A stretch of DNA of 62,727 bases from Candidatus Bathyarchaeota archaeon (GCA_016783485.1 JADHWM010000002.1:1-62727), one strand, 5' to 3'. Shown: positions 12,580-34,261, counted from the stretch's first letter. Made by a program: numbers and translations. The notes: generated from the letters alone by a model not told the origin.

Positions 12580-12595
12580 GCGAACTTGATAGGCC

Positions 12596-13252: not shown

Positions 13253-13274
13253 CAGAGGGCGCAGGAGGAACGCT

Positions 13275-14273: not shown

Positions 14274-14319
14274 CATTGTTTTTCAGGGAGCATTCAAGCA
14301 AATAACCGAGACTCCAAGG

Positions 14320-15369: not shown

Positions 15370-15375
15370 TGTTGA

Positions 15376-16470: not shown

Positions 16471-16498
16471 TGGATGAACCGACGGGGAAGCCTGTGAA

Positions 16499-17467: not shown

Positions 17468-17509
17468 ATACACGAAAATCAGGCTCAATTCGATAGGGAA
17501 CGTGGATAG

Positions 17510-18652: not shown

Positions 18653-18689
18653 AACACCTCACATCAGAACGCCCTATCTCTCCTCTCCG

Positions 18690-19991
18690 ATGAACTCAAG
18701 TGAACTCAATCTGGGGTTCAAGATGAGCCCGGACGAAAACATAGATCAACTGATGAAGAAACACCTCGAACATGCCACCCGAAAGATGCTCGTTAGCATT
18801 GGCGAAGAAAAAATCAAGTCGATTATCCTGACCGGGAGCGTGACGAGGGGAGAAGGCTCAGGGATTGCGACCGATCACGGCATCGAGATATTCAGCGACT
18901 ACGACCTCATGGTCCTGGTGGCCCCGAGCCACGACTCCTCCATAGACCGGCTTCGACGAGAATCCGCTGCCCTCTCTGAAAAAATATCCGAAGAACTCTT
19001 GGGAGACGGCCTCCTCTCCGGAGTCAGCATATATCCTCTGAGCGTCGACGACTTGGAATCGCTGACTCCCACGATGTTCACGCTGCAGCTCAGAAACTGC
19101 GGGAAGGTGCTCTATGGTGCTGAATGCCTCGATGTCATCCCAGACTATGATGTCGAGGACATACCCAAGATCGATTCCCTCACGATGCTGAACAACAGGA
19201 TCGCCACCCAGATGAAGTTCCTCGACCCCGAGGTGTTCGTCTGGAAGACCAGGGAGGACCCTCGACAGGTCCGGATGTCCATCTACCATACGGCCATAGC
19301 CTTCATTGATTTGAGCAGCTCCCTCCTGAACCTCATCGGGAAATTCCAGCTGAGTTATGGAGAGAGAGCCGAGGTCTTCCAAAAGGAATTCCATAGATTT
19401 CCGTACCTGAAGGAGCAATGCCCCGATCTTCCAGAGGTGGTGGACTTCTTCACGAGGCTGAAATATGATCCTGATCTTCGCAGGGTCGCCGAGAGATACG
19501 GCTACGGATGCTCTGATGAAGAGCTTGTGGATGTCGCAGTCAAGGTTTGGCTCGAACTCCTCGACTACGTCAAGCCCGTTTGGGCTCATCATGTCAGGGA
19601 ACTATGCGATCCCGGTCCAGACGCTCATGATGTAAAAGATCTGGTGGAGGCTTTCTTCAGGTACGCCAACACTCTCGATTCTCGTCTGGTCTCCATCATC
19701 CATTATCTGAAGTCTAACAACTATTCTCTCGGCTCGATTCCCCGAAGCACAAGATTCTTATCCGCTTCTCTGCCGGCTGCGGTCTACTCCACACTGATAC
19801 TCCAGTATTACGCGACGCCCGGGATTCTAGAGAAAGAACACATTGACCGGGCCCCCCTCCTTTCAGACGCTCAAAAATACCTCAACAAACTCCCCCATGA
19901 GCAACCGCCGGGAATCTTTGAAAACCCCATCAAGCACTGGGACCGGATGAGGCGAGTCGGCTCAAAGATGTGGTCGAGATACATCGAGTGA
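18690..19991 (+). CDS. Pol-beta-superfamily nucleotidyltransferase-domain protein with large helical C-terminal region
   Basis: ILTGSVTRGEGSG...IFSDYDLMVLV matches the G[SG]-spacer-DxD NTase signature; the remainder is unassigned. Confidence 0.6.
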   Translation: MNSSELNLGFKMSPDENIDQLMKKHLEHATRKMLVSIGEEKIKSIILTGSVTRGEGSGIATDHGIEIFSDYDLMVLVAPSHDSSIDRLRRESAALSEKISEELLGDGLLSGVSIYPLSVDDLESLTPTMFTLQLRNCGKVLYGAECLDVIPDYDVEDIPKIDSLTMLNNRIATQMKFLDPEVFVWKTREDPRQVRMSIYHTAIAFIDLSSSLLNLIGKFQLSYGERAEVFQKEFHRFPYLKEQCPDLPEVVDFFTRLKYDPDLRRVAERYGYGCSDEELVDVAVKVWLELLDYVKPVWAHHVRELCDPGPDAHDVKDLVEAFFRYANTLDSRLVSIIHYLKSNNYSLGSIPRSTRFLSASLPAAVYSTLILQYYATPGILEKEHIDRAPLLSDAQKYLNKLPHEQPPGIFENPIKHWDRMRRVGSKMWSRYIE

Positions 19992-21160
19992 ATAAAACCC
20001 TCATCGTTTTCATCGACGGCCTCGGATACGACCGGGTAAACGACTCCTCATTCACGCTCAATCTATCCAACGAGCCCATCAGACTGACCCCCGCACTGGG
20101 CTACAGCTCAGCGCAGCAATCTATCATGTGGACCGGGAAAATGCCCTCTGAGACGGGGCGGTGGAGCGAACTGGCGTACTCTCCCGAGTCTTCACCCTGG
20201 TGGTGGCTGGGCTCCAGATACCTGATGTATCTGGACGAACTTGTGGCCAGAGCCCCACGTAAATTCAGATCGCTCTACGAGATCGTCGCCCGGGAAACGA
20301 TAAGATTCCTGAGCGGATGGATACGCCCCTTCCGTTCATACGACGCTTTCGCTGTGCCCGTCTCCAAGCTCAGCCACTTCACTCCGTATGAATCGGACAT
20401 CCATCAACCCGGCTGCCTAGGTGAGACGGAGACCCTGTTCGATATCCTGAGGAGCAGGGGGGTGAATTATCGCTACATCGGATACCCCGATGTCAAGGAG
20501 GACCACGAAGTTCATGGGAAGGGCATGGAAGCGATAATGGAAAACGACGTGATAATCCTCGGCTTCACGGAGCTGGACTCCATTGAACACCATTATGGAG
20601 TGGATTCAAGGGAAGCCCGGGATAAACTGGGTGAACTCAACGCATTCATCAACGATCTGATAGCGCTCTTCGAATCGAGCAACCCGGATGGCACCGTCAT
20701 CGTCTTCTCCGATCACGGCATGAGCGAGGTCAAGCACTCGATAGATGTCCAAGGAAGAGTGAATTGTCTCGACCTCCGAGACGGGTACGACTATCTCTCG
20801 TTCTACGACGCAACCATGGCCCGATTCTGGTTCTACACCGAGGCTGCTGAATCCATGATCACGGAGCTGCTGCGAACGATCGAGGGAGGAGTGATTCTGG
20901 AGGACGATGAATTACGCTCTTTGGGCCTGGACTTCGGCGACGACGCCTTCGGCGACCTCATCTTCTTGGTCGACGAGGGGTTCGTGGTCTCCCCGAACTA
21001 TTTCCAGGGCAGGACGGTTCCCCGGGGGATGCACGGATACCATCCTAGGAATCCCGGCCAACACGCCTTTCTCGCGAAGAACGATGAACCGGTGCCGAGG
21101 TCAACCATATCCATGGACGAGGTCTTCGACATCTTCATCCAGGCTCTAGGAATCACGTAG
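19970..21160 (+). CDS. Alkaline-phosphatase-superfamily protein (nucleotide pyrophosphatase/phosphodiesterase- or PglZ-like)
   Basis: LIVFIDGLGYD, VIVFSDHGM, GMHGYHP metal-ligand motifs; overlaps upstream gene by 22 nt. Confidence 0.7.
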   Translation: MVEIHRVNKTLIVFIDGLGYDRVNDSSFTLNLSNEPIRLTPALGYSSAQQSIMWTGKMPSETGRWSELAYSPESSPWWWLGSRYLMYLDELVARAPRKFRSLYEIVARETIRFLSGWIRPFRSYDAFAVPVSKLSHFTPYESDIHQPGCLGETETLFDILRSRGVNYRYIGYPDVKEDHEVHGKGMEAIMENDVIILGFTELDSIEHHYGVDSREARDKLGELNAFINDLIALFESSNPDGTVIVFSDHGMSEVKHSIDVQGRVNCLDLRDGYDYLSFYDATMARFWFYTEAAESMITELLRTIEGGVILEDDELRSLGLDFGDDAFGDLIFLVDEGFVVSPNYFQGRTVPRGMHGYHPRNPGQHAFLAKNDEPVPRSTISMDEVFDIFIQALGIT

Positions 21161-21184
21161 GCCGCGCCCTGGAAGCGTAACCCT

Positions 21185-22411
21185 ATGAGTAAAAGGCTCG
21201 CGATAATCGCGAAGAGGTACGCAGACCCCATACCCGAGGGTCACACCCAGGCCTCCATCAACCTCATCAACAGCGTCCTAGGCTCAGAGTTGAAACCCCG
21301 GGTCATCTCCCACGGGCGGCCCCTCACAAGGGGCGACGTCCACATCTACAAACCCCTGGACGACCAGGTCTACGCCGTGTACGGCATGTTCGCCATACCC
21401 AAGTTCTCTAAAACGCTGGGAGCCGTCGCCTTCAAGATTCACGAACTCTACAGGATCCTTATCTCGGGTTGCCTGACCAAGGGCTTCGATGCGATATACC
21501 TGACGAACGTCCCGATGACCCAATACTCCGCATTCCTGAAACTCCTTTCGAAGGCCAGGAATAAGAAAGTGAAGATAGTCGCTCACGCGTTCCACCCCTA
21601 CACCCCTGAGGTGGGGCTTTTCCACGGAAACCATAGATGGCTGTTGAGCCACGGGAGCACGGACCACGTCTTCTGCATCAATCGTAGACTCGTGAGCCAC
21701 TACTCCGGGATCCTCGACCCGGGCAACGTTCATCACGTACCCTACCCTGTTGACACCGAACGATTCAAACCCCGAGACAAGACCGAAGCCCGGAAGCTGC
21801 TGAGGCTTCCCGAAGATGCGAGAATAATAGGATACGTTGGCCATCTGACTTTGGATCGAGGAGCATACGATCTGGTTGAGGCTGTGGGCGATGTGTCGTC
21901 AAGCCACAGGGATCTGATTCTGGCCATCGTCTCGTCTCCCTTCGTCACCGAGGAGCAGTACAAGGACTTTATGCATCACGTGCAAAAATATGGGGTGGAA
22001 GACAAGATCAAAATACTGAATCGCAGAGGAGACTATTACTACAACGCTATATTCAGTGGCTTCGACCACATAGATCGTTTTTTCAATGCCGTGGACATCG
22101 CTGCCCTCCCCTTCCGGAAACCGTATACGATAATCGATCCCCCCGTCACCCTCCTCGAAGCCATGTCCTCAGGAACCCCCCTAGTCACGACGAAAGCAGG
22201 GGCGATCGGAGAAGTCGCAGGCGGCGGCAACTCGGTCCTGATCCCCCCCGGCCAGGAGGGGGAGCTCAGGGAAGCCCTGGATGGCCTTCTGAAGGACGAC
22301 GAATCCAGGGGAAGAATCGGCTCGTCGGCGAGGTCGCACATGGTGAGCAATTATTCTCTGGATGCCATCGGTCATAGAATGATAGAATTATTCGAGGGCA
22401 TCATGGCATGA
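21185..22411 (+). CDS. Glycosyltransferase family 4
   Basis: DPPVTLLEAMSSGTPLVTTKAGAIGEVAGGGNSVLIPPG and GT-B-like two-domain length. Confidence 0.8.
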   Translation: MSKRLAIIAKRYADPIPEGHTQASINLINSVLGSELKPRVISHGRPLTRGDVHIYKPLDDQVYAVYGMFAIPKFSKTLGAVAFKIHELYRILISGCLTKGFDAIYLTNVPMTQYSAFLKLLSKARNKKVKIVAHAFHPYTPEVGLFHGNHRWLLSHGSTDHVFCINRRLVSHYSGILDPGNVHHVPYPVDTERFKPRDKTEARKLLRLPEDARIIGYVGHLTLDRGAYDLVEAVGDVSSSHRDLILAIVSSPFVTEEQYKDFMHHVQKYGVEDKIKILNRRGDYYYNAIFSGFDHIDRFFNAVDIAALPFRKPYTIIDPPVTLLEAMSSGTPLVTTKAGAIGEVAGGGNSVLIPPGQEGELREALDGLLKDDESRGRIGSSARSHMVSNYSLDAIGHRMIELFEGIMA

Positions 22412-22418
22412 TATTCAA

Positions 22419-22428
22419 CTTTAAAATA
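22419..22428 (+). promoter_or_regulatory. TATA-like box upstream of the GT-C-like membrane protein gene
   Basis: CTTTAAAATA lies 24-33 nt upstream of GTG 22452, consistent with a leaderless or short-leader archaeal transcript. Confidence 0.3.
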
Positions 22429-22451
22429 CCGCGCTCACGAGCCTAATAGTC

Positions 22452-24080
22452 GTGCCTGACCTGAGAAAGCACTGGCCTCTGATCGCCGCGCTCCTCGTTT
22501 TCTGGGGCACAGTCGCCCTCGTACTCGTATCATCAGTGAACAACAACGGTGGCCGCCTCATCTACGCCCTCGATGACCCCTATATCCACATGTCCATCGC
22601 GAAAAACTTCGCCCAAAAAGGTGTGTGGGGCGTGACGGAGTACGAGTTCTCCTCGTCAGATTCCTCGATATCCTGGATAATTCTCCTATCTATCGCCTAC
22701 GTCATAGCCGGTGTTAACGAGATCACTCCGTTTTTACTTAATCTGATATCGGGGACTCTGCTTATCGGCGTGCTCTATGGCTACTTATCGGAACATGGGT
22801 TATCCCGCTCGTACACTTTCATGGTTCTGTTTTTGACGATCTTCGTGTCCCCTCTCCCCTCCACCGTCTTCGTTGGGATGGAGCACATCTTTCATGCGCT
22901 CATCACTCTGCTGTTCGTGACTCAGTCTGCGAAGATGTTGGCCAACGAGAGTGAACCATCCCTTGGTTATTTGGCGGCGTTATCCGTGGTCTCCATCACG
23001 ACGAGATTCGAAGCGATGTTTCTCATCGGAGTCGTCGCTCTACTATTCTATGTTAGGAAGCAGATCAGGGTTTCAGTCGTTCTCATTTTAAGTGGTGTCA
23101 TCCCCTTGGTGGCTTACGGGCTCATATCTATCCTGAACGGATGGGGCTTTTTTCCAACCCCGATCTCCCTCAAGGGCTCCTTCCCAACAATTACGCCCCT
23201 TGGATTATTCAGTTTCATGTACGAATTCCTTCATTATTTGACAATCGATGGATTGATCCTTACGCTAATTTTCACAGCATTACTGCTATTTTTATACAAA
23301 TACAATACAGGTGACGGCGTATGGGATCGTTCCATGGTCATGACAATGATATTCATCCCCACGACATCGATGCATATTCTATTCGCAAAAATTGGTAACT
23401 TCTTCAGATACGAAGTCTACCTAGTATCTCTTGGGCTGTTCATCATCGCAATAAATTCATACGAATATTTGACGAAAAACGTCTCATTCAAAAAAAGTAA
23501 GAGAATTGGGATCAACTCTGTCTTAATCATCATCCTGATCATGTTATTCCTATCCCCCCTCTTTCCCAGGAGTTTCAGATCGCTGAAAAACGTCTCCCAG
23601 GCAACCACGAACATCTATGAGCAGCAATACCAGATGGGCCTTTTCTTGGACGAATTCTATTCCGAGGACACCATCGTCGCGAACGATATCGGCGCCATCA
23701 CTTTCTTGACTCGAATACGGCTGATCGACATGAACGGGCTGGGCAACTTCGAAGCTGCTAGGGCGATCATGAGTGGAGAATTGACCACACAGCTGATCGT
23801 GGACCTAGCCCAGGCGGGACAGGCGAGAATAGCTGTGGTCTATGACCACAAGTTCGAGAGGGATTACCGCGGAAACGAGATAGGCGGAATACCTGAACAG
23901 TGGATCAAGGTGGGCCAATGGCGGATATCCGACAACATCGTCTGCGGTAGCGACACTGTCTCATTCTATGCCTTCGATTCCAGCGAAGCTCTCCTCTTAA
24001 CTGAAAACCTGCAGGCTTTCTCTTCGAGACTACCCGAAAGCATCCATCAAAGTGGTGGATACGCGATCTCTGGTGGATGA
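22452..24080 (+). CDS. Polytopic membrane protein, putative GT-C-type glycosyltransferase
   Basis: About 11-13 hydrophobic helices; acidic first-loop motif YALDDPYIHMSIAKNF after TM1; ~170-aa soluble C-terminal domain. Confidence 0.65.
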   Translation: MPDLRKHWPLIAALLVFWGTVALVLVSSVNNNGGRLIYALDDPYIHMSIAKNFAQKGVWGVTEYEFSSSDSSISWIILLSIAYVIAGVNEITPFLLNLISGTLLIGVLYGYLSEHGLSRSYTFMVLFLTIFVSPLPSTVFVGMEHIFHALITLLFVTQSAKMLANESEPSLGYLAALSVVSITTRFEAMFLIGVVALLFYVRKQIRVSVVLILSGVIPLVAYGLISILNGWGFFPTPISLKGSFPTITPLGLFSFMYEFLHYLTIDGLILTLIFTALLLFLYKYNTGDGVWDRSMVMTMIFIPTTSMHILFAKIGNFFRYEVYLVSLGLFIIAINSYEYLTKNVSFKKSKRIGINSVLIIILIMLFLSPLFPRSFRSLKNVSQATTNIYEQQYQMGLFLDEFYSEDTIVANDIGAITFLTRIRLIDMNGLGNFEAARAIMSGELTTQLIVDLAQAGQARIAVVYDHKFERDYRGNEIGGIPEQWIKVGQWRISDNIVCGSDTVSFYAFDSSEALLLTENLQAFSSRLPESIHQSGGYAISGG

Positions 24081-24086
24081 AACGAA

Positions 24087-24851
24087 GTGGAAACTGCTGC
24101 CTCGGTGAACCAGAGATGGAGACTTGCTCAAAAGTATGAAAAAAGGCATTGGGAGATACGCCCCCGGAAACAGAGAAGCGACGAGGTTCTACACGATTAT
24201 TATGAATTCTTCAAGAAATCTCTCAGTCTTGGCGATGACCTAAGCGTTCTGGATATTGGAAGCGGGCCATTCGGAATGATAACCTACTTCCAGGGAACCG
24301 CAAGATGTGCGCTGGACCCGCTATTAGATGACTACTCCCAAAAAACGGGGATAACCAAAGGAACCGCGTTGGTGAAAGGCGTCGCTGAGCATCTACCCTT
24401 CATCGACGGTTCATTTGACATGGTGGTCTCAACAAACGCGATCGACCATGTGATGAAACCCGGCCAAATGTTGAGGGAAGTCCAAAGGGTTATAAAAGAA
24501 AGAGGTTGCACTCTGGTCTCGGTCTATTGCAGCGGCCTGATGATGAAGGTCGTCTTGGACCTACGAGAGAAAATCCATGAGGGAGACGTTCTTCACCAAC
24601 ACCATCTATCGTTTTTATCGATGGTTCGCCTCTTGAACCCCCTCTTTAACATCAAAAGAATTGTGATAGGTTTACGTGGTGATATGGACTTTTCCGAGAA
24701 GGACGTGCTGATTCAACATCTACGTGCATCAAGAATCCTAAAGGCCATGAGGACAGGTATACGGTACCTAATCGAACTGTTTGACCGGCTTATTTACCCC
24801 CCCGCTGAGTACATATTTCTCATGGAAAAACGCGTTCACGCCTCATTCTGA
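24087..24851 (+). CDS. Class I SAM-dependent methyltransferase
   Basis: VLDIGSGPFGMITYF (motif I), LPFIDGSFDMVVSTNAIDHV. Confidence 0.8.
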   Translation: METAASVNQRWRLAQKYEKRHWEIRPRKQRSDEVLHDYYEFFKKSLSLGDDLSVLDIGSGPFGMITYFQGTARCALDPLLDDYSQKTGITKGTALVKGVAEHLPFIDGSFDMVVSTNAIDHVMKPGQMLREVQRVIKERGCTLVSVYCSGLMMKVVLDLREKIHEGDVLHQHHLSFLSMVRLLNPLFNIKRIVIGLRGDMDFSEKDVLIQHLRASRILKAMRTGIRYLIELFDRLIYPPAEYIFLMEKRVHASF

Positions 24852-24940
24852 TTCAACTGATTGTTGTTCACATGCGAAAACGCTAAGCGTCTGTCATAAA
24901 CGATCGATTCGAGTATGATTCTGGTGAGTAGCCCCTGATC

Positions 24941-25546
24941 GTGTTGTTCGGCCCCGATGGCTCGGGCAAGACCACGCTGTCGAGAGCCTTGGCGAGAACC
25001 CTCGTGGAGCGGGGGCAGCCGGTGAAGTGGTGCTGGATGCGGGGGAGCCACACCTTCGTCTCCCTGCTCTCCAGATTCCTCGCCCGATTCCCCGCGTTCC
25101 ATGGCCTCTCGAACCCCTATTACGGGATAGCCGTCCCCCCCTCTGCCTCGAGGCTGTGGCTCCTCCTGGAATACATCGGCTTCCTCCCGATCTACCTGCT
25201 CCAGTACGCCCTCCCCGCGTGGCTCGGCTACACCATCGTCTCCGACAGATTCACCGCAGACCTCGTGGTCTGGATCACCCTGGTGACAGACGATCCCACG
25301 GTGACCGACAGCCTCCTAGCCAGACACCTGATGGCCCTCATGCGGAGAGCCGGCCCCCTGTTCTTCGTCACTGCGGGGCTGGGACGCCTCGTGGCCCGAA
25401 GCGGGGAAGACCCCGGTTACATGAGGCGTCAACTGGCTTTGTATGGTAAATTGGGCTTGAACGCCAATATCATCGACACGACGGATGAGACACCAAAGGA
25501 CTCATTGAATAAGATCCTGGCGATAATAGACGGAGGTGGGTGCTGA
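24941..25546 (+). CDS. P-loop NTPase, (d)NMP-kinase-like
   Basis: Walker A FGPDGSGKTTL at the N-terminus; IVSDRF; ~200-aa kinase-like size; an unusual hydrophobic insert LWLLLEYIGFLPIYLLQYALPAWLGY. Confidence 0.65.
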   Translation: MLFGPDGSGKTTLSRALARTLVERGQPVKWCWMRGSHTFVSLLSRFLARFPAFHGLSNPYYGIAVPPSASRLWLLLEYIGFLPIYLLQYALPAWLGYTIVSDRFTADLVVWITLVTDDPTVTDSLLARHLMALMRRAGPLFFVTAGLGRLVARSGEDPGYMRRQLALYGKLGLNANIIDTTDETPKDSLNKILAIIDGGGC

Positions 25547-25549
25547 GCG

Positions 25550-26557
25550 GTGTCGGTTGTAGATCTCCTCAGGGTCGTGGGGTCGCCATTCGCAGAGTCG
25601 ACCCACTCCGTCCCAGCAGAGGACGCCCAAGGTCTCTATGAGCTCGCCCGGAGGAACCGCATGGGCCTCCTGCTCCTGACCTCCCTCGGGGATGACGATG
25701 TTCCCGCCTCGCTCGAGGAGGAGAGGGCCTCGATGATTGAGAAATCCGAGGAGACGATCCGGCTGATACCCCGGGTCGCCTCGATCCTCCAGGATGCCGG
25801 GCTGAACTACTCCCTCTTCAAGACCATCCGGCCCTACCCGTACACCACCGTCGACCTCGACGTCATCGCCTTCGACGGGGATCTGGAACCCTTCGGGGAG
25901 GCCTTCACTGCAGCAGGTTTCATCACCCTGGACGAGGGCCCCCTGTCCACCACCTTTCGGGACCCCGAGTCCAGCATCGGGATCGACATCTACGACGAGA
26001 TCGGTGTCAGCAAGATTATCTACCTGGACAAGAGGAACCTCCTCGATCACGTGGTCGACGTGGAGGTCGGGGGCGGAACCGTCAGGGCCCTGGACCCCGC
26101 ATCGGATCTCCTCGCGATCATAAGCCACTCCATCATAAAGGAGCTGATGTACGTCCTATCCGAGTACTACACCACACTGTACACGCTGGACGCCATGACC
26201 CCGGGGGAGCTCGATTCCCTAGTCACCCAGGCCTCTGAGAACCGGTTAATTTCGGCCGCATCGCTCCATCTAGGGATCACCGCGGCATTGCATCAGCTGG
26301 CGCATGGTTTAATTCCGGAGAAGATCATGGATCTAATGGACGGCCTGGGAGGAGCCAAGATGGGAGACGGGGACAGATACACAGAGATGCCGATGAAGTT
26401 TTCACCCGGCTCCGTCTGGAGGGTCTTCATAGAGAAGGCCGGGGAGCCGAGGATGAGGCGGAGCCTCGGCGTGCAGGCCCTGAGCCTCCTGAATCCCTCG
26501 TTCGCATTATCCTTCATCCCCAAGTTCATTCACCAGCTGACGCGGGAGACCTACTGA
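25550..26557 (+). CDS. NTP_transf_5-like (uncharacterised nucleotidyltransferase family) protein
   Basis: LFKTIRPYPYTTVDLDVIAF, IGIDIYDEI, ASDLLAIISHSIIKE resemble the DxD / D.H / H....H pattern of PF14907; by-eye assignment. Confidence 0.55.
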   Translation: MSVVDLLRVVGSPFAESTHSVPAEDAQGLYELARRNRMGLLLLTSLGDDDVPASLEEERASMIEKSEETIRLIPRVASILQDAGLNYSLFKTIRPYPYTTVDLDVIAFDGDLEPFGEAFTAAGFITLDEGPLSTTFRDPESSIGIDIYDEIGVSKIIYLDKRNLLDHVVDVEVGGGTVRALDPASDLLAIISHSIIKELMYVLSEYYTTLYTLDAMTPGELDSLVTQASENRLISAASLHLGITAALHQLAHGLIPEKIMDLMDGLGGAKMGDGDRYTEMPMKFSPGSVWRVFIEKAGEPRMRRSLGVQALSLLNPSFALSFIPKFIHQLTRETY

Positions 26558-27480
26558 TGGTGTGGCCGGTCCGGGTGGACAGGGAAAGCGGTAAACGGGT
26601 GATCCTGTGGTCCATCGCAACCCTTTCCATACTGCTCTCGCTGTACCGGCATAACGCCCTGGTCCTTCTCGGGAAGGCAATCGAACTTCTCTCCGGGAAC
26701 CTCGGATACAGCTCCTCCCTGGGTGGGCTATTCCTCGTATCCTTTTTCCTCCTGCTCCGCTGGGAAGAATTCAACCTGATTCTCTCCCAGGAACGTGGAT
26801 ACACATCAATGCTCCCCAGGAGGCTATTCGGCCTGGCAGTGACCCTGTTCCCCCTCTTTTTCATGAGGAACACCGAGTTCCTGCCCCGGCACCAGTACCT
26901 CCATGCATCGGTGATGATGGTCTTCCTAGTGGGCTACGGAGCCACCCTGATTATAACTCCCACACTCTGGAAGGTCCTCCTCCCCTACGCTGCGCTGGCC
27001 GTGATGACTTTCCTCTCACCTTCCCTGATCCAGTCAACCCTGGGCGATGTTTTCATCGACATCGCAGCCGTCCTCACGAGACTCTTCCTCGGCCTTTCAG
27101 GCGCCGGCGTCATCTGGGACGGCAACGAGGCCGCGTTCATCTCCCGGTCGGGGGAGGCGGTGAAGCTCATGATAGACCGGGGGTGCTCATCGATACCCTC
27201 CATCTCCATATTCCTCCTCCTCGTGGGCCTGATGCACCTCGACCAGAAAAAGGATCTAAACTCCACCCTGAAGCTGGCCTCCCTGGGCACGGTCGCCCTG
27301 ATCGTAGTCAACTCGGTGAAGCTCGCGTTGACCATCTGGGCCGGAAAAGTCTACGGCAGCGGGGCCCTCTGGAGCCTCCACAGCTGGCTCGGCTACGTCT
27401 TCTTCACCGGCTTCTATTTGGTGGCTTTGTTAGCGTATCTTAGGATGAGCAAGCCTAGAATGAAGCGGGGGGAGGGCTGA
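26557..27480 (+). CDS. Archaeosortase/exosortase-family-like polytopic membrane protein
   Basis: About 8 TM helices. Cys motif MIDRGCSSIPSISIFLLLVG (family: xCSGxxS), then VVNSVKLAL ~42-45 aa downstream (family: N..R) and LHSWLGYVFF (family His motif). Start shares one nt with the upstream stop (TGATG). Confidence 0.6.
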   Translation: MVWPVRVDRESGKRVILWSIATLSILLSLYRHNALVLLGKAIELLSGNLGYSSSLGGLFLVSFFLLLRWEEFNLILSQERGYTSMLPRRLFGLAVTLFPLFFMRNTEFLPRHQYLHASVMMVFLVGYGATLIITPTLWKVLLPYAALAVMTFLSPSLIQSTLGDVFIDIAAVLTRLFLGLSGAGVIWDGNEAAFISRSGEAVKLMIDRGCSSIPSISIFLLLVGLMHLDQKKDLNSTLKLASLGTVALIVVNSVKLALTIWAGKVYGSGALWSLHSWLGYVFFTGFYLVALLAYLRMSKPRMKRGEG

Positions 27481-27555
27481 TCCCTGCGGCTCAATCTACC
27501 GGATAACTATCCCAGCCAGGCCGCCCTCCTAGTCCTCGCAGTCGTCCTGTTCACG

Positions 27556-28263
27556 GTGGAGTACATCATCGTGTACATCAGCGAATCCATCGGGATCCTC
27601 CTGGTCCTGGTCACCCTGCTGGTCACCTACGGCCTCCTCTCAGTGATCAACGTCTCCGAGGCCATGGCCAAGATCGTGGAGGACATCTCCCTCCTCTTCA
27701 TCTACATGATGCTCATGTCCGCCCTCCCCTGGTTCTTCTTCAAACAGGAGCTCCTGGTCCCCGCCGTCTACTCCCTGGTGCTGGCCCTCTGCTTCTGGAG
27801 GATCCACACCGAGAACATCAGCTTGGAGAGCCTCGGGATGGCCTTCACTAACCTCAAGAGCGCCATATTCATCAGCTTGGCGATCGGCATCCCCATGGGG
27901 GTCGTCGAGTACACCATCCTCCGTCCCGCGGCTGTGACCCCCACCTTCGACGTGGGCTACTTCACCCAGACCGTGGTGCACATGCTCTTCTTCGTGGCCC
28001 TCGGGGAGGAGATCCTCTTCAGGGCGATAATCCAGAACAGCATCATCAAGTCCCTGGGCGTCGCCTCGGGCATCTTCTGGTCCGCCCTCTACTTCAGCGC
28101 GATGCACTTCGTCTGGAGGAGCATACCCGAGCTCTTTTTCACCTTCGCCGGGGGGCTCGTCCTCGGCGCCGTGTATTACAAGAAGAGGAACCTGGTCGAG
28201 CCCGTCCTCATCCACGCTGTGAACAACGTGGTGCTCCTGGCGGTCATGCCCTACCTCCTCTAA
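27556..28263 (+). CDS. CPBP-family intramembrane glutamic endopeptidase (CAAX protease/Abi family)
   Basis: EEILFRAIIQN, FSAMHFVW, HAVNNVV motifs. It is in the same frame as the upstream gene, separated by one TGA and 75 stop-free nt. Confidence 0.85.
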   Translation: MEYIIVYISESIGILLVLVTLLVTYGLLSVINVSEAMAKIVEDISLLFIYMMLMSALPWFFFKQELLVPAVYSLVLALCFWRIHTENISLESLGMAFTNLKSAIFISLAIGIPMGVVEYTILRPAAVTPTFDVGYFTQTVVHMLFFVALGEEILFRAIIQNSIIKSLGVASGIFWSALYFSAMHFVWRSIPELFFTFAGGLVLGAVYYKKRNLVEPVLIHAVNNVVLLAVMPYLL

Positions 28264-28436: not shown

Positions 28437-28691
28437 CTACTCGGAGGCTTCCTCTTCTTCCTCCGATTCGGCCTCGAAGTCGAAATCCTCCAGGGGCATC
28501 GGGGGAGGCGTCGTCGCCAGGGTGTAGCCTATCCACGCCATGATGAGCAGGACCATCCCCACCGCTAGGAGCGCGGAGACCTGAATGGTCAGCCACGCCC
28601 ACGGCGACATGAACAGTAACCAGAAATAAATCACGACACCAGCGAGGCTTCCCAGGAAGATTATACCGCCGAGCGCTCGGTCATTAGCCAT
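28437..28691 (-). CDS. Small two-TM membrane protein with Pro-rich hinge and highly acidic C-terminal tail
   Basis: MANDRALGG...two hydrophobic helices...TTPPPMPLEDFDFEAESEEEEEASE. ATG 28691 is preferred over TTG 28700; an AT-rich TATA-like ATTATTAAAG lies upstream on the minus strand. Confidence 0.6.
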   Translation of the reverse strand: MANDRALGGIIFLGSLAGVVIYFWLLFMSPWAWLTIQVSALLAVGMVLLIMAWIGYTLATTPPPMPLEDFDFEAESEEEEEASE

Positions 28692-28775
28692 ATTTATCAA
28701 ACCCTTATTCGGGGCTCATCTTTAATAATTCTACGGTTATGCATGACTTTCTGTCCAGGTTAAACCCGGGGCGAC

Positions 28776-30713
28776 TCACCGATATTTCCTATATGCAACG
28801 GCCGCTACCACTAGCACTAACGCCCCTAGCGCCAAGTAGATCCCGGTCCATGATCGGGGGTTCTCGACCACCACGTCCGTGTATCCCGTGTTGTCATTCT
28901 CGTTGATCTCGAATACATCGTTGTCCCCGTCAACCACGGCGCCGATCCTGTAGCCCCCGACGGCGTCGGGCTCCCAGTGGAACTCCACCGTCAACTCCTC
29001 TTCGCCTCGGATCTCGTCGACGGTGAACGTATCCGCCCTCGATCCGTCCACTGTCAGCGTCACATCGACGCAGGTGGGTTCGACTCCCGTGTTCCTGATG
29101 TCCACGGTGATGAGATATTTCATCGCATCCGATCTGTCCACGGATACGTCGATGACTGTGAGGTCGGGGAGGGTCAGGAGCCCGGGGTCGATTTGGGCGA
29201 ACGTCTCCGGCAGGAGATGCGGCAGCATCAGGAGCTGATCCTCTTTCTCCAGGTTCCCGGTCACGGTGTTCAGCATCTCCTCCGGGGCCTCGTCCAGGAC
29301 CAGCCCCAGTTCCCGGAGATGCCCGTCGTCGATCCAGGATCGTGCAACCGCCATGACCCTCTCCGGACTCATCCCCTCGAGCAGCCGGGCCACTGTGGAA
29401 GGCGTCGAGGGCAGTCGGGCTATCTCCAGGAGGACTTGGGAGAGCAGATCCGTCTCCACGAGATCGAGGATCTCGACCACGACCGTGCTCTCCAGGCTGG
29501 TTGCGGCCTCGACGAGGGCGGCGCAGCTCTGGGGGTCGGTCTCGTACATCGATTTGAGCAGGGCGGAGCCTCCCCGGGGTTCAACCGAGATTAGGAGGGT
29601 GGCTCCCTCGTCCTTCTCCATGTTCAGCAGTAGAGTCGAAAACGGTCTCGTCAACCCGAGTTCAACGGCTGACTCGATCACCTCGATCGCCTCCGATAGC
29701 CCGAGTTCCCGTGCGGTCTCATTGGATGTAGCCTTGGGTGAGACGCTGTCGAGGATGTCGGCTACCAATTCGGAGGGGACGCCTTTGAGCTGTTCGAAAA
29801 CCCTTGAAGCCGTGTCCTCCGTCTGAGCGGGGACCACGACGAAGCTCCGGGATGAATCCATGACGGTCAAAACATGCCATCCCTCCTCGAGCCCGGTTAA
29901 ACTGAAATCCAGATACCTGGACTCTCCCGACTCGAGGGAAACCTGCTCCTCGGTATACGGCTCACGATCTATGGAGAAACCGATCATGCGATCTTCAAGC
30001 CGCTCGCCGGTGTTGATGACCATGGCCGTAACACGGATCTCGCTACCGACACTGGAAACAGGAGGATATACCGAGAGGTCCCTGATTGCGAGTTCGGCGT
30101 GGGCGGGGGGTGGAGATGAACCCTTCTCGTTGAGGTTCACCGTCTTCTTGACGGATCCCGCCTCAACCCTGAACGTACCGAGGGGTATGTTGCTCGTGTT
30201 GTAACTGTAATCATAGATTCCTTCGGAATCCGTCTTGACTGTGGCGCTCGCCGTGACATTGAGCGTCACAGCTGTCGCATTTGGTAGGGCGTACCCGTGG
30301 AGCCTCAGGTCATATGTCCCAATCGGGACGTTGCCCTGAGATATGGTCACGACGCCATCCGTTGCGGTGGCGCTCTTGGTGATCGGCAAGAAGATAATCT
30401 TGGTTGAGATGTGAACGTTGGCGACGCTCTCTGCCCTCACCGAGACCCTGTTGGGCGTCGAGGGGACTTGGACGTCTTCAAGGATCCACTCGTACTTGCC
30501 GTCAACAACGCTCAACGTTTTCGAGAAAGAGATAATGATGGCGACCTCCTCCTCGGGCTGAGCAGCGATCCGGATCGTCACGACGTCCCCCTGCGACGGG
30601 GAGGCCGGGGTGACCTCCAAGGAGGAGACCTCAGCCTGAACTGTGACCGGGAGAAGAGGCGAAATCAGCAGTAGAAAGAGGACAAGTTCCTTTAACCTAC
30701 TTCTTTGCGTCAA
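28776..30713 (-). CDS. Secreted cell-surface protein with CARDB-like domains and C-terminal motif/TM/basic tail
   Basis: TTG start; signal-like LVLFLLLISPLLPVTVQA. Two CARDB-like modules (LAIRDLSVYPP...VINTGE and LTVIDVSVDRSD...DIRNTGVEP...DGDNDVFEINENDNT). C-terminus ENPRSWTGIYLALGALVLVVAAVAYRKYR. Confidence 0.8.
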   Translation of the reverse strand: MTQRSRLKELVLFLLLISPLLPVTVQAEVSSLEVTPASPSQGDVVTIRIAAQPEEEVAIIISFSKTLSVVDGKYEWILEDVQVPSTPNRVSVRAESVANVHISTKIIFLPITKSATATDGVVTISQGNVPIGTYDLRLHGYALPNATAVTLNVTASATVKTDSEGIYDYSYNTSNIPLGTFRVEAGSVKKTVNLNEKGSSPPPAHAELAIRDLSVYPPVSSVGSEIRVTAMVINTGERLEDRMIGFSIDREPYTEEQVSLESGESRYLDFSLTGLEEGWHVLTVMDSSRSFVVVPAQTEDTASRVFEQLKGVPSELVADILDSVSPKATSNETARELGLSEAIEVIESAVELGLTRPFSTLLLNMEKDEGATLLISVEPRGGSALLKSMYETDPQSCAALVEAATSLESTVVVEILDLVETDLLSQVLLEIARLPSTPSTVARLLEGMSPERVMAVARSWIDDGHLRELGLVLDEAPEEMLNTVTGNLEKEDQLLMLPHLLPETFAQIDPGLLTLPDLTVIDVSVDRSDAMKYLITVDIRNTGVEPTCVDVTLTVDGSRADTFTVDEIRGEEELTVEFHWEPDAVGGYRIGAVVDGDNDVFEINENDNTGYTDVVVENPRSWTGIYLALGALVLVVAAVAYRKYR

Positions 30714-30832: not shown

Positions 30833-33800
30833 TCAGTAATACTGGGGGTACTGTTCCCGGGCGCGCTCGGCGAGGTCCGGAAGCTGCTTGATGAAGTACC
30901 CTGCGGCTATGCCGGCCAAAAGGAACATAACCGTGTACAGCTGCCAGCTGTTTGCGGAGCTCCTCGATGAGGCGAGCTCCTCGTTCAGCATGGAGACCAT
31001 GGCCTCGAGCCCACTCATCTGGGTGCCCAGCTCCCCCATCTGTCTCTCCAAGTCGGGTACCGCTCCCTCCAGGCTTGATAACTCGACTTCCAGCCTGGTG
31101 ACGCTTCTCTCGAGGACGCCGATCTGGGTCTGGAGCAGCGTAGTCTGGCTCTCAAGGTCCGCCGTCTCGATGTCCTGGGTCTCGATGGTCTTCGCGTATC
31201 CGAGGATGAGCCCCGAGTACTGGGTCACGTAGTCGACGATGTTCTCGAACAGTCTGGCGCCCTGCTGGGGGTTCGCGTCGGGTCCATATCTGTCTGGTCT
31301 GATCAACTCCGGCTTGTACAGCCCCATGAAGTGGCCGAAAGGCGCGTCTCCGGAGACGATGATCACGTTGGTATTCTCCGGGTCTACTTCCAGGGCCATC
31401 ATCGTGATGGCTCCCACTTCTCCCGCCTCGTGGGCCTGAGGCGGGGGCTCCATGCTGTCGACTATAACGCCATAACTCGTGGTTGTCATGAGCACGTGGA
31501 CGTTCTCGAGGCTCTCCTCCTCCAGCTTGATGTATCGGCCATTCTTATGCCCGATGATTGTCCCGGGTCCGTGGAACAGGCTGCGATTCACTCCCGAGAC
31601 GAGGAATCCGAACTCCGGGTCAGCGTTGTCGCTGACGGCGAGGACTCTATATGGAGCGTAACCGTTGGAGAAGTGGTCCTCCGCTGAAGCCGACTCGATG
31701 CGAAGTGCGCTGCCGATATACTCCAGAACCTCGTTGGCCGATGTCTGGCGGAGCGCGTCGTTCCCGAAGTCGCTGTCCGAGGCGATCCAGAGTCCTTTTC
31801 CCCCTTCGTCCAGCCAGCCTTTCACCACTTTGAGCTCGTCGTTGGAGTAGTCCAACAACGGGTTCGCTTGAACCATGATGAGCATCACGGCCCCCTCTAG
31901 GTCGTATTCGGTAAGTTCGCCGTAGACTATTGACCATTTCACGTGGGGCATATCCTCCTCGATTGCGGCGAGCTGGGTGTCGGGTTCCCGGGCCCCCTTG
32001 AGGTGGATGACTACCTCAGGTTTCCCGAAGACGGGGAGCTCGGGGAGCCGTTGCTGGATGGATTGGGTGAAGTAAGGGTGCAGGGTCGTCCTCCTTGAAT
32101 CTTTCATCTCCCGCCAGATGTCCTCGAGGGTATCGTCAGAGACGAATCCTAAGACGTCGACGAGTTCGTAGAGGGCCCCCGTTGAGACCCAGGCGTTCAC
32201 CACGTCGTCGACGACGTCGATCTTCATCACCTCGAAGACCTCCGCCACCGTGGACGGCGTTGCGGGGAGGTTGGCGATCTCGATGAACAGGGCCACCAGG
32301 GTGTCGACGGTGACCTCATCGAGCACGTCTCCGGTTTTCTCCAGGAACTCCTTCTGTCCTTCCGGGGTGAGCTCCCGGGTCTTGTGCTTGACCATGGCCT
32401 CAACCTTCCAGGCGGTGGTGTCCAGATCCTTTACCGCCATCGCCTCGACAACGGCGGCACCCGATTCTGGATCAGTCCCTATCAGCCCGCCCACAGTCGC
32501 GTTGTCATTCACCGTTAACAAGATCTCAGCGAAAGCCTCAGTGTTGTTCGTCCTTACTGCGGTCCTGATGAGAGACCCCGCCTTCACCTCGCTCATTTTC
32601 TCCACCTCCTCGAAGATCCCCTTTGCAGTCCCCCTACCAACCTTAGAAATGACCTCAGAGGCCGGGGCCTCCTCCATCATCTCGACCATTTTTAGGGCGA
32701 CCTCTGGATCCATGTTCTCGATGATGGTTGCAGCTAGCTGTGTGTTGATCTTCTCGAGAATTATGGCGGCCAATGTGGAGTCCATCTTCTCTACGATTGC
32801 TGTGGCTGTTTCTATGTTGGTTTTTTCAATAATAGCGACTGCCTTTGTAATATTCATCTTCTCTACGATTGCTATGGCTGCTTCAACGCTGATTTTTTCA
32901 AATATGGCGGCAGCGGTATCGCTATTGACCTCCTCTATGATCTTCGCCGCAGTCGTCGGGGGCAGGGACTCTATGACTTCGGCGGCCGCCTCAACTGGGA
33001 GTTCCTCGAGATCCTCTGCGGTGGGGGTTGGTGGTGGAGCAGCAGCTCCTCCTCCGGAAGACGTGGTCGTGGTTATGGACACATAGCTTTGGTTGAACGC
33101 TACTACGCGGTCAACATAGTCCTGCCATACCGCCGTGATGAGCACATAATTTCCATCCAGGAGATCCGATGTCGCCAGCGAGGTCGAGGCATTGTTTGAG
33201 GGTGTCATCCCGGTGAATCCCACGGAGACCGCGTTGGAATCAAATATGGATCTCAGGCTCTCTATGACGTAGGTCGGCGTGAAGAACGAGGCGCCGATGT
33301 TCCCGGAGGAGATGGCGGCTGCCAAGCTGCCGTTGGCGACCAGGGCTCCGTTGACTCGGAGCTCCGTCCCCTCTCCTGTGCCGTCGCTCGTTAACGCCAA
33401 GTATGCTGAGTAGGCGTTTCTCTTGACGAGGGCGGATCCGTAGATGAAGGAGCCCGGGCTTCCGTGGACCTCTATGCCGACATCTAGGAAGTCGCCTTGG
33501 GCGACCTCAGTGGGAGCGGTGACGGTGATGTCCCTTTCAAGGACCTCGACGACTGTGGCGGAGTAGAGATAGAGCGTCTTGGGGTATGAGGCGCCGACTT
33601 CCCTCAGGACCACCAAGAGGTAGTCCCCGGCCCCGGGGTTGGGGGTGATCGTGAAGGACGCGTCTCCGTTGGAGTCCAGGGTCTTCGACGCGCTCCAGTG
33701 AGGGTTGGTGAGCTTGGCCCGCAGGAATGCCATGTCCCCCGTGAATATGTCTCTCAGGAAGTTGCGCATCTCCGTGAAGGACTGGAATCTCAGCAGTTTG

Positions 33801-34261
33801 AGGTTCACGTCGAGGCCGGCGAAGCTCGGTGAGCCCCAGAAGGTCCCGTTGATCGTGTCTCCGGTGGCGTACGCCCTGTGAACATTGAGGGGGTATGTCA
33901 CCTCGCTGCTGGTTACGCTCCGGATGAAGTTGACTGTGGTGTCGTTGTTAAGGTACTCCACCATTCCGGGGCTCGTGAAGGTGAGGCTGAAGGCGGGTAT
34001 CTCGAACGGGGCCCCTCCCCCAAGCTCTATCCAGTTGCCCTGTGTGAGGTCGTTCTCATGCGAGGCGATGATGAGGTTGCCATAGTCCGTGGGGGGGTTT
34101 ACAATGACGTTGATGGGGTAGTCCGGGAGGGCGGCCTGCGCTGTCCCGATTGGTGCGACCGGTATCCCGCCCATATATTGGGTGGCGCTGATAATGCTTG
34201 ATGAAATTAAAATAACTAAACCCAGCAGTGGAAAAAGTCGTTTTTTGTGCTGTCTGAGCAA
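30833..34261 (-). CDS. Giant (1142 aa) cell-surface protein with 12-residue tandem repeats, coiled coil and C-terminal TM anchor
   Basis: TTG start; signal-like LFPLLGLVILISSSIISA; TTTTSSGGGAAAPPPTPT linker. About eleven A.AI.EK-type 12-aa repeats and a module shared with 28776..30713. C-terminal heptad-like LESQTTLLQTQIGVLERSVTRLEVELSSLEG, then TM LYTVMFLLAGIAAGYFI. Confidence 0.8.
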   Translation of the reverse strand: MLRQHKKRLFPLLGLVILISSSIISATQYMGGIPVAPIGTAQAALPDYPINVIVNPPTDYGNLIIASHENDLTQGNWIELGGGAPFEIPAFSLTFTSPGMVEYLNNDTTVNFIRSVTSSEVTYPLNVHRAYATGDTINGTFWGSPSFAGLDVNLKLLRFQSFTEMRNFLRDIFTGDMAFLRAKLTNPHWSASKTLDSNGDASFTITPNPGAGDYLLVVLREVGASYPKTLYLYSATVVEVLERDITVTAPTEVAQGDFLDVGIEVHGSPGSFIYGSALVKRNAYSAYLALTSDGTGEGTELRVNGALVANGSLAAAISSGNIGASFFTPTYVIESLRSIFDSNAVSVGFTGMTPSNNASTSLATSDLLDGNYVLITAVWQDYVDRVVAFNQSYVSITTTTSSGGGAAAPPPTPTAEDLEELPVEAAAEVIESLPPTTAAKIIEEVNSDTAAAIFEKISVEAAIAIVEKMNITKAVAIIEKTNIETATAIVEKMDSTLAAIILEKINTQLAATIIENMDPEVALKMVEMMEEAPASEVISKVGRGTAKGIFEEVEKMSEVKAGSLIRTAVRTNNTEAFAEILLTVNDNATVGGLIGTDPESGAAVVEAMAVKDLDTTAWKVEAMVKHKTRELTPEGQKEFLEKTGDVLDEVTVDTLVALFIEIANLPATPSTVAEVFEVMKIDVVDDVVNAWVSTGALYELVDVLGFVSDDTLEDIWREMKDSRRTTLHPYFTQSIQQRLPELPVFGKPEVVIHLKGAREPDTQLAAIEEDMPHVKWSIVYGELTEYDLEGAVMLIMVQANPLLDYSNDELKVVKGWLDEGGKGLWIASDSDFGNDALRQTSANEVLEYIGSALRIESASAEDHFSNGYAPYRVLAVSDNADPEFGFLVSGVNRSLFHGPGTIIGHKNGRYIKLEEESLENVHVLMTTTSYGVIVDSMEPPPQAHEAGEVGAITMMALEVDPENTNVIIVSGDAPFGHFMGLYKPELIRPDRYGPDANPQQGARLFENIVDYVTQYSGLILGYAKTIETQDIETADLESQTTLLQTQIGVLERSVTRLEVELSSLEGAVPDLERQMGELGTQMSGLEAMVSMLNEELASSRSSANSWQLYTVMFLLAGIAAGYFIKQLPDLAERAREQYPQYY
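32591..32998 (-). repeat. In-frame tandem repeat, 36-nt (12-aa) period, ~11 units, inside the 1142-aa surface protein gene
   Basis: PVEAAAEVIESL PPTTAAKIIEEV NSDTAAAIFEKI SVEAAIAIVEKM NITKAVAIIEKT NIETATAIVEKM DSTLAAIILEKI NTQLAATIIENM DPEVALKMVEMM EEAPASEVISKV GRGTAKGIFEEV. Near-identical 27-mers occur at 32782-32808 and 32854-32880 (72 nt apart). Confidence 0.85.

Follow-up and report, generated by a model that had tools for sequence, protein, structure and literature searches.

The window analysed here, the whole 62,727-nt (62.7-kb) stretch of DNA from a Candidatus Bathyarchaeota archaeon (GCA_016783485.1 JADHWM010000002.1:1-62727), carries four consecutive genes, designated P1 to P4, at the 3' end of a sugar-modification locus (Table 1). 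An earlier note on this DNA had read them as kinase-like, nucleotidyltransferase (NTase)-like, archaeosortase-like and CPBP protease genes, and had proposed that they form an integrated system for sorting and modifying proteins. All four open reading frames and every motif quoted for them were recovered, and the four labels stand after model and fold tests. The integrated system was not supported, because P1-P2 pairs occur in glycan loci without such sortase or CPBP genes, and the array looks like two known kinds of module lying side by side rather than a new four-part machine. L-numbers below denote loci compared with the window, and P00xx or P01xx numbers denote homologous proteins obtained from searches.

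Table 1. Features of the four-gene array and its surroundings in the window
Feature	Coordinates	Strand	Size or evidence
Sugar/glycan-modification locus, P1-P2 at its 3' end	10652-24851	+	Pfam, NCBIfam
Three tandem radical-SAM/SPASM paralogs (within the above)	15376-18652	+	
P1, predicted thymidylate-kinase-fold P-loop protein	24941-25546	+	201 aa
P2, predicted Pol-beta-fold nucleotidyltransferase-like protein, PF14907-related	25550-26557	+	335 aa
P3, archaeosortase nearest to ArtC, from an uncurated clade	26557-27480	+	307 aa
P4, CPBP (Rce1-like) glutamic intramembrane protease	27556-28263 as called; from 27484 with the ancestral start	+	235 aa from 27556
87-aa protein with two transmembrane segments and an acidic C-terminal tail	28437-28700	-	phmmer homologs
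645-aa secreted CARDB-domain protein with signal peptide	28776-30713	-	CARDB 76 bits
1142-aa surface protein with coiled coil, C-terminal transmembrane segment and 20-aa tail	30833-34261	-	TIGR04279 134 bits; MgtE_N-like repeats 59 bits

The P2 stop and the P3 start overlap in the sequence cTGATGg, so that the two genes are translationally coupled, as had been claimed. Purifying selection acts on all four genes, with dN/dS values of 0.17-0.21 for P1, 0.15-0.21 for P2, 0.12-0.14 for P3 and 0.08-0.12 for P4. Pseudogene decay, considered for P3 as the carrier of an unusual Lys and for P4 as a gene without an ATG, was ruled out by the dN/dS of the two genes (0.08-0.14) and by their open frames. 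In the orthologs of L001, L005 and L015 the P4 ATG lies 4-5 nt past the P3 stop. The window has CTG at this place (27484) and a 1-nt intergenic deletion in the stretch 27481-27556, and its first canonical start is the GTG at 27556. As the frame from 27484 stays open, 27556 is probably a short start that cuts ~24 residues off the P4 N-terminus; these residues are conserved in the open frame and form part of the first transmembrane (TM) segment. The P1 N-terminus has just three residues ahead of the glycine of Walker A, with a TAG stop three codons upstream (24929-24943). Homologs elsewhere have N-termini 5-20 residues longer, whilst the L001 ortholog is equally short, and the CTG at 24935 could be the true P1 start. 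Read-through of the TAG or a frameshift as the cause of the short N-terminus was ruled out by further stops upstream and by the same arrangement in L001.

An archaeosortase and its CPBP partner

P3 scored 39.5 bits against the exosortase/archaeosortase signature model TIGR04178 (cutoff 23, E 5e-10) and its relatives scored 41-48 bits, confirming the family assignment by hidden Markov model (HMM). PF09721 (EpsH), precomputed for the relatives P0006, P0009 and P0010, did not detect the window protein and was discarded as a detector, leaving the TIGR signature model as the only one that finds P3. No named Art or Xrt subfamily cutoff was reached, the best score being 37.2 bits against 100 for ArtC (TIGR03762), and the NCBI label on a P3 ortholog is already generic ('exosortase/archaeosortase family protein'). 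P3 is thus placed as a member of an uncurated archaeosortase clade that is closest to ArtC. An exhaustive profile search returned ~27 clusters below E 1e-30. Beside the P2 family, the clade is tiny. The closest genome match was the Candidatus Bathyarchaeota metagenome-assembled genome (MAG) QDN_3, with a P3 93% identical to that of the window, followed by a more distant Bathyarchaeia MAG; L018 is a 100%-identical metagenome contig. Scans of the window for tRNAs and Rfam families gave nothing that aided its placement. For a pattern-based metagenome scan the 20-sequence clade alignment proved too divergent, and a narrower alignment yielded nine loci.

Crude hydropathy analysis of P3 gave seven clear TM segments and one or two weaker N-terminal ones, in keeping with the roughly eight proposed previously. 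The order and spacing of the proposed active-site motifs were likewise reproduced: C210 lies in DRGCSSIPSI, N252 and K255 of VVNSVKL follow 42 and 45 residues later, and H275 of LHSWLGY comes 20 residues after K255. In an alignment of 20 clade members sharing 24-47% identity, C210 and H275 were invariant and N252 nearly so, and C210 was present in all loci. The suspected Lys-for-Arg exchange was also borne out, the K255 column being Arg in every other lineage of the alignment; Lys is carried by the window, L018, L001, L005 and L014/15, which form a lineage of their own, and by the fragment P0022 (64% identical). In Haloferax volcanii ArtA, Cys173 and Arg214, 41 residues apart, are described as critical in the account given by PMC9263693, which cites Abdul Halim 2018, and a Cys/Arg/His triad has been proposed for the family (Haft preprint). 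The Lys lineage offers a natural test of that mechanism.

P4 scored 61.1 bits against PF02517 (gathering cutoff, GA, 22.4) and contains the motifs EExxxR, FxxxH and HxxxN as EEILFR, FSAMHF and HAVNN, so that its reading as a CPBP protease holds. It fell under every named Mrt/CPBP cutoff, including those of Mrt_core NF040914 (32 against 100 bits), MrtS (43 against 130) and MrtJ (41 against 75). Its association with the sortase extends well beyond the window. The next-closest P3 relative after a 48% homolog, P0011 of locus L007, is a 564-aa natural sortase::CPBP fusion; across 233 aa, its CPBP half and P4 share 55% identity. An HMM census of all loci found P3-P4 linkage in six independent lineages. 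The two genes are neighbours in the window lineage as well as on the 1.47-Mb contig of L027, and L026 has them next to each other in the opposite order. In L007 and L019 they are fused, and in L025 an interval of 2 kb with a LolCE/FtsX-type permease gene separates them. A P4-specific HMM gave 147-418 bits on CPBP genes or domains beside or near P3-clade sortases in the six lineages and had no match in the sortase-free loci. Taken together, the synteny and the fusions argue that P3 and P4 are a true functional pair, in which the CPBP protein is the obligate, dedicated partner within the clade. The earlier note had suggested an archaeal sortase/CPBP pairing, and because relatives in the clade are natural fusions the evidence for it is now stronger than when it was proposed. 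With these fusions, the long-standing question of what CPBP proteins do beside exosortases becomes more tractable.

Several transport-related genes were observed around these sortases. In L025 (7805-10729), where the LolCE/FtsX-type ABC permease gene separates the CPBP and archaeosortase genes, there is a MOP flippase gene just upstream. An additional FtsX-type permease and an ABC ATPase are encoded downstream in both L006 and L025, and an 'ABC permease/CPBP' family gives the top NCBIfam match of the fused CPBP domain. The sortase::CPBP fusion of L007 (1302-1838) and the P1-P2 pair of L016 (9171-9878) each have a gene for a YdjM-family membrane hydrolase directly 5' of them, a further gene common to both kinds of neighbourhood.

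Related sortases are accompanied by a conserved set of genes, which encode a protein of 140 aa, a 2-TM protein and a secreted one of ~270 aa. Members of the ~270-aa family end in WTLQGDIPDLP(A/M)G, a TM segment and basic residues in L006 (two copies), L023, L024 and L025 (two copies), and the L027 member has the ending SGDIPEFP...YLRRHEN. In L002, GGIPEFPFQ...RRRTLR closes an unrelated protein of 1224 aa, and PEF-like tails were absent from the rest of the ~300 kb of loci. Because unrelated proteins carry it, the tail appears portable, as expected of a sorting domain. The PEF-CTERM model TIGR03024 gave these tails at most 12.4 bits against a cutoff of 23, or no score, whilst the L002 tail aligned with the model end to end. 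The ~270-aa family also has an invariant Cys in the motif DRCP(S/A)(T/S)G, 15-16 residues before IP(E/D)(F/L)P (L006 1498-2316, L023 2661-3494, L025 5146-5958 and 11782-12594, L027 12543-13388). As a CPBP protein belongs to the system, this motif recalls the Cys-containing signals of the CPBP 'myxosortases', and the Cys could be a lipidation site.

None of the three companion gene families and no PEF-like tail was found within the window, and the 645-aa and 1142-aa proteins encoded next to the array do not have the PEF-like signal seen in neighbours of related sortases. The 645-aa CARDB protein ends in ...VVENPRSWTG, a TM segment and RKYR, and a C-terminal scan picked it out as the sole tripartite-looking end in the 62.7 kb. 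It is conceivable, if doubtful, that this protein is the substrate of P3 and that a novel signal of the form E-x-[P/S]-R-S-[W/L]-T-G, set right against the TM helix and followed by a basic tail, co-evolved with the Arg-to-Lys exchange, giving a new specificity class. Besides the uniqueness of the tail, its conservation in L005 and L015 as VE[NRE][PS]RS[WL]TG, at the same place next to P3-P4, speaks for this, as do the signal peptide, the surface-type domains and the location of substrates beside related sortases. However, a TM helix followed by basic residues is common to any type-I membrane protein, and the tail is indistinguishable from an ordinary TM anchor. The motif has no Pro-rich signature of known Art/Xrt signals and matched neither the PEF/IPDLP motif nor any curated signal model. 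It occurs on a single protein family, so its portability as a sorting domain is unsupported, and the three orthologs are too close for constraint on the motif to be separated from shared ancestry. The CARDB protein is therefore best described as a putative, unproven substrate, and the best local candidate. Apportioned roughly for the window lineage as a whole, we look first to proteins encoded elsewhere, next to the CARDB protein and last to something else, with none of the three reaching even chances. The 1142-aa protein is unlikely to be a sortase substrate.

A kinase-like and nucleotidyltransferase-like pair in glycan loci

By sequence, P1 gave only Walker-A-level matches, with 13 bits for TIGR00041 against a cutoff of 83 and 48 bits for its bacterial homolog, and P2 reached 17.1 bits (E 0.004) on PF14907, under the GA of 31.2. 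Since these matches were weak, both structures were modelled. The AF2 model of P1 (pLDDT 87) returned more than 150 PDB dTMP kinase matches in Foldseek at a TM-score of ~0.65, covering the full-length fold. Family motifs comprise the Walker A GPDGSGKTT, WMRGSHT and a DRY-type element (SDRF/ADRY). The Walker A and the predicted thymidylate-kinase (TMK) fold together uphold the kinase-like description, although by its TIGR00041 score P1 does not qualify as a dTMP kinase.

The proposal that P2 is NTP_transf_5-like stood in part. Its motifs (DLDVIAF, IDIYDEI and SHSIIKE) and an NTase fold were confirmed, and the PF14907 gathering score was not attained. Because several homologs at 37-43% identity carry precomputed PF14907 assignments, P2 is regarded as a divergent relative of that family; NCBI names its ortholog 'nucleotidyltransferase family protein'. 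Foldseek matches to the P2 model (pLDDT 92, pTM 0.91) included a fungal NTase-like protein (5uvd), FKRP at ranks 2-3, ANT(2''), LnuA and TM1012, all spanning the core alone (TMq ~0.3). Three carboxylates, D102, D104 and D146 in a DxD...D arrangement, were invariant in 33 homologs, and the model thus predicts a Pol-beta nucleotidyltransferase core fold with a metal site formed by DxD and a third Asp.

Homologs of P2 numbered more than 120 clusters at 32-46% identity, distributed over Bathyarchaeia, Hodarchaeota, Nitrososphaeria, Baldrarchaeia and one Tepidanaerobacteraceae bacterium. In L008/9, L012, L013, L016 and L017 the P2 homolog has a TMK-like gene overlapping it or next to it, and in L010 the distance is 5 kb. 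All P2 contexts examined were glycan loci, with genes for GT1, GT2 or GT4 glycosyltransferases, a MOP flippase, methyltransferases, sugar epimerases or aminotransferases. The bacterial locus L012 contains Bac_transf and Wzi genes and repeats the order methyltransferase, TMK-like gene, P2 seen in the window. No P3-clade sortase or P4-type CPBP gene was found in the P1-P2 loci L008/9, L010, L012, L013, L016 and L017. An independent survey has likewise described a pair of 'thymidylate kinase + PF14907' flanking PEP mutase. From its recurrence in such loci, P1-P2 appears to be a widespread, uncharacterized glycan-locus module of archaea and bacteria.

Exosortase_EpsH proteins of 685-694 aa encoded near P1-P2 in L008 and L016 were considered as possible P3 relatives and rejected as being of an XrtW/XrtD-like type. 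They represent a second Bathyarchaeia exosortase type with a long C-terminal extension (L016 2910-4967 and the upstream edge of L008/L009), situated 5-7 kb from P1-P2 in L008/9 and L016 and scoring far below the XrtW, XrtD and XrtV cutoffs. Genes for DUF7982 and DUF1616 proteins follow this exosortase, and the representative P0106 is a GT4/GT1::exosortase fusion.

One four-part system or two modules

The array P1-P2-P3-P4, together with the genes for the small TM protein, the CARDB protein and the 1142-aa protein, was conserved in L001, L005 and L014/15. At the limit of this conservation (L014/L015), P3 was still at least 87% identical and P1 69%, and the upstream glycan genes differed. Past the window lineage, which is also the Lys255 lineage, the cassette breaks up, so that the joint presence of all four across genomes, on which the integrated system depended, does not reach beyond one shallow Bathyarchaeia lineage. 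P2 adjoins a P3-clade sortase in that lineage only, and P1 or P2 was not found in the available sequence of most P3-clade loci (L002, L006, L007, L019 and L023-L027). The idea that the kinase-like and NTase-like proteins are parts of a sorting system finds no support in the P1-P2 pairs of glycan loci of Bathyarchaeia, Nitrososphaeria and a bacterium that are free of P3- and P4-type genes.

We therefore favour, with moderate confidence in the model as a whole, two separate two-gene modules that close a surface-glycan operon at its 3' end and are transcribed together. Module A (P1 and P2) would most likely add a phosphate-linked substituent to a glycan or a lipid-linked precursor, with P1 making or priming a phosphorylated or activated donor and P2 transferring it, on the pattern of FKRP/LicD-type transferases and of the tandem PsmK/PsmN, a kinase and an NTase-fold protein. 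In module B, P3 would act at the membrane surface, cutting a C-terminal tripartite signal via an acyl intermediate on Cys210 and passing the protein to an anchor, its predicted catalytic set being Cys210, His275 and, replacing the usual Arg, Lys255. The CPBP protein would contribute a coupled second proteolysis, most likely clearing or trimming the TM remnant, or else a second cut. The related lineages would keep their substrates next door, with ends of the form GDIP(E/D)(F/L)P, TM helix and basic residues, whilst in the window lineage such substrate genes are locally absent, Arg has been replaced by Lys and P3-P4 would have been captured behind P1-P2. Sorted proteins probably carry the glycan produced upstream as a decoration. 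Such decoration would explain the linkage of the modules and agrees with the placement of exosortases, which typically sit in exopolysaccharide (EPS) loci (Haft preprint).

Several observations weigh against two independent modules as set out here. The translational coupling of P2 and P3 joins the proposed modules, and a P1-like gene lies directly 5' of an Arg-type sortase, without P2, in L004 and L021, with which the window lineage clusters in a crude neighbour-joining tree. K255 sits where ArtA has its critical Arg, and no substrate for the window lineage was found in the 62.7-kb window. The census covers ~14 P3-clade and ~7 P1-P2 lineages, many of them on short contigs, and the biochemical roles given to P1, P2 and the CPBP protein are deduced from folds and context. 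On the L004 and L021 genes, the window P1 is 46-54% identical to P2-paired P1s from sortase-free loci as against 35% to the sortase-adjacent P1 of L004, and the adjacency in those two loci may equally be inherited synteny.

The same observations bear on the integrated reading, in which P1 and P2 build a phospho- or nucleotide-linked acceptor, or modify the new C-terminus, and P3-P4 attach it to surface proteins; this would amount to a phospho-linked anchoring step akin to that of glycosylphosphatidylinositol (GPI), undescribed for archaeosortases. We consider it unlikely. In its favour, the four genes stand close together and include a TGATG overlap, their order is kept down to 69% P1 identity despite the differing upstream glycan genes of L014/L015, and the L004 and L021 sortases with a P1-like gene directly upstream share a subclade with that of the window. 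Gain of P2 and the change from Arg to Lys mark exactly the same lineage. There is also a precedent in PsmK/PsmN, a kinase and an NTase-fold protein that modify a peptide C-terminal Ser, and the nearest PDB neighbours of PsmN (5cfs and 4xje) are the same as those of P2. Set against this are the single shallow lineage in which P2 stands beside a P3-clade sortase, the P1-P2 pairs in sortase- and CPBP-free glycan loci that include those of a bacterium and Nitrososphaeria, the majority of P3-clade loci without P1 or P2 in the sequence available, and the closer relationship of the window P1 to sortase-free P1s than to that of L004. In its strongest form, a recruited four-protein unit would furnish surface-protein C-termini, for example that of the CARDB protein, with a phosphate-linked moiety, GPI-like or phosphoglycan, through a new non-PEF signal; we hold this version to be somewhat less likely again. 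If true, it would give archaeosortases a kind of covalent anchoring that has yet to be described for any of them. That P4 is no sorting partner at all but lies downstream by chance, as an immunity-type Abi/CPBP protein or an unrelated membrane protease, would suit the abundance and functional diversity of CPBP proteins and the failure of P4 to reach any named subfamily cutoff, but is effectively refuted by the existence of two natural fusions to the same sortase clade, with their 55% identity to P4, and by the six-lineage distribution of matches to the P4-specific HMM.

Under the two-module model, the P3-P4 clade can be compared with several known sorting systems. Of the named subfamilies, ArtC with its PEF-CTERM substrates (TIGR03762/TIGR03024) scores best for P3 and for each of its relatives, and PEF-like tails are encoded near the latter; however, the clade scores 31-47 bits against the cutoff of 100, the tails fall under the PEF-CTERM cutoff, the CPBP partner is obligate, and the window lineage combines Lys with the absence of a local PEF-like substrate. 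The bacterial XrtE/VPEID-CTERM system (TIGR04162) with its TIGR03008 CAAX protease similarly couples or fuses an exosortase-family enzyme, in the N-terminal position, to a CPBP protein. A genuine XrtE, P0152, scored 192 bits on TIGR04162 (cutoff 150), whereas P0011 and the window P3 had no match; TIGR03008 gave ~20 bits against 81, the window genes are separate, and the archaeal signal is PEF-like rather than VPEID. Because the XrtE model, the CPBP subfamily and the signal all differ, the archaeal fusions look independent or very ancient, and the P3-P4 clade may be viewed as an archaeal analogue of XrtE. ArtA of Haloferax volcanii belongs to the same superfamily, has a Cys followed by a basic residue ~41-45 residues on, and acts on surface glycoproteins with a motif-TM-basic signal, but it forms its own subfamily, recognises PGF-CTERM, has no CPBP partner and relies on PssA/PssD for lipid attachment, and P3 has Lys at the position of its Arg214. 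The myxosortases (MrtS, MrtJ, MrtC and MrtX), the best NCBIfam matches of P4, are CPBP proteins dedicated to tripartite C-terminal signals; unlike P4, which accompanies a Cys-protease sortase and scores far below their cutoffs, they act alone on Cys-containing signals.

For P2, the closest parallels are lasso-peptide PsmK/PsmN and the FKRP/fukutin/LicD proteins, which share the Pol-beta NTase core, the metal carboxylates and an adjacent kinase gene. ANT(2'') is the nearest model of PsmN and, together with FKRP, is among the nearest structures of P2. FKRP is a CDP-ribitol-dependent ribitol-phosphate transferase, and its likeness to P2 is one of core fold only. In contrast to PsmK/PsmN, P1 has a predicted TMK fold and is not of the HPrK or choline-kinase type, and P2 occurs in glycan loci and not in clusters for peptides that are made on the ribosome and modified after translation (RiPPs).

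Bathyarchaeia are among the most abundant uncultured lineages of sediments. To our knowledge, archaeosortase biology comes almost entirely from haloarchaeal ArtA, and we know of none in Bathyarchaeia. The clade newly defined here is marked by its CPBP partner, by neighbours with GDIP(E/D)(F/L)P-CTERM tails and by a natural Arg-to-Lys variant under purifying selection.

The upstream glycan locus and neighbouring surface proteins

The locus upstream of the array encodes a UbiA protein, two epimerase/dehydratases, a PHP protein, three radical-SAM/SPASM proteins, a phosphodiesterase, a GT1 glycosyltransferase, a 542-aa membrane protein and a methyltransferase, and the same gene order recurs in L001. 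This content is that of sugar modification and confirms that P1-P2 stand at the end of such a locus. The three tandem radical-SAM/SPASM paralogs lie beside genes for a type-I phosphodiesterase-family protein and a PHP phosphoesterase, and the trio is also present in L014. Such a trio is unusual in a glycan locus and may indicate odd sugar or peptide chemistry.

The 87-aa protein encoded downstream of P4 has homologs in L005, L015 and L018, beside the sortase in L007 (928-1194) and L027 (9588-9869), and beside sortase-free P1-P2 in L008/9 (L008 8149-8439) and L016 (13688-13966). It is the sole gene family tied to both modules and has a weak Pfam match to an 'archaeal microprotein'.

The two surface proteins beyond it had been called giant; they actually measure 645 and 1142 aa. 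The 1142-aa protein shows a weak C-terminal likeness to the S-layer anchor SlaB, and its synteny is kept in L005 and L015. A module of 156 aa with the motif LP(S/A)TPSTVA is common to both (31% identity, E 4e-14), and together they may be an S-layer-like envelope pair. A 1143-aa protein encoded 5' of the L002 sortase was considered as an ortholog of the 1142-aa protein and rejected; BLASTP found no similarity, so the match in length is a coincidence. Kinship of the CARDB protein to the 2-TM protein, whose gene comes after the sortase gene in other lineages, was similarly dismissed for lack of similarity. In L005, from a near-identical MAG, a reverse-strand gene for a 221-aa SAM-methyltransferase-like protein (2084-2749), absent from the window, is inserted between the genes for the small TM protein and the CARDB protein.

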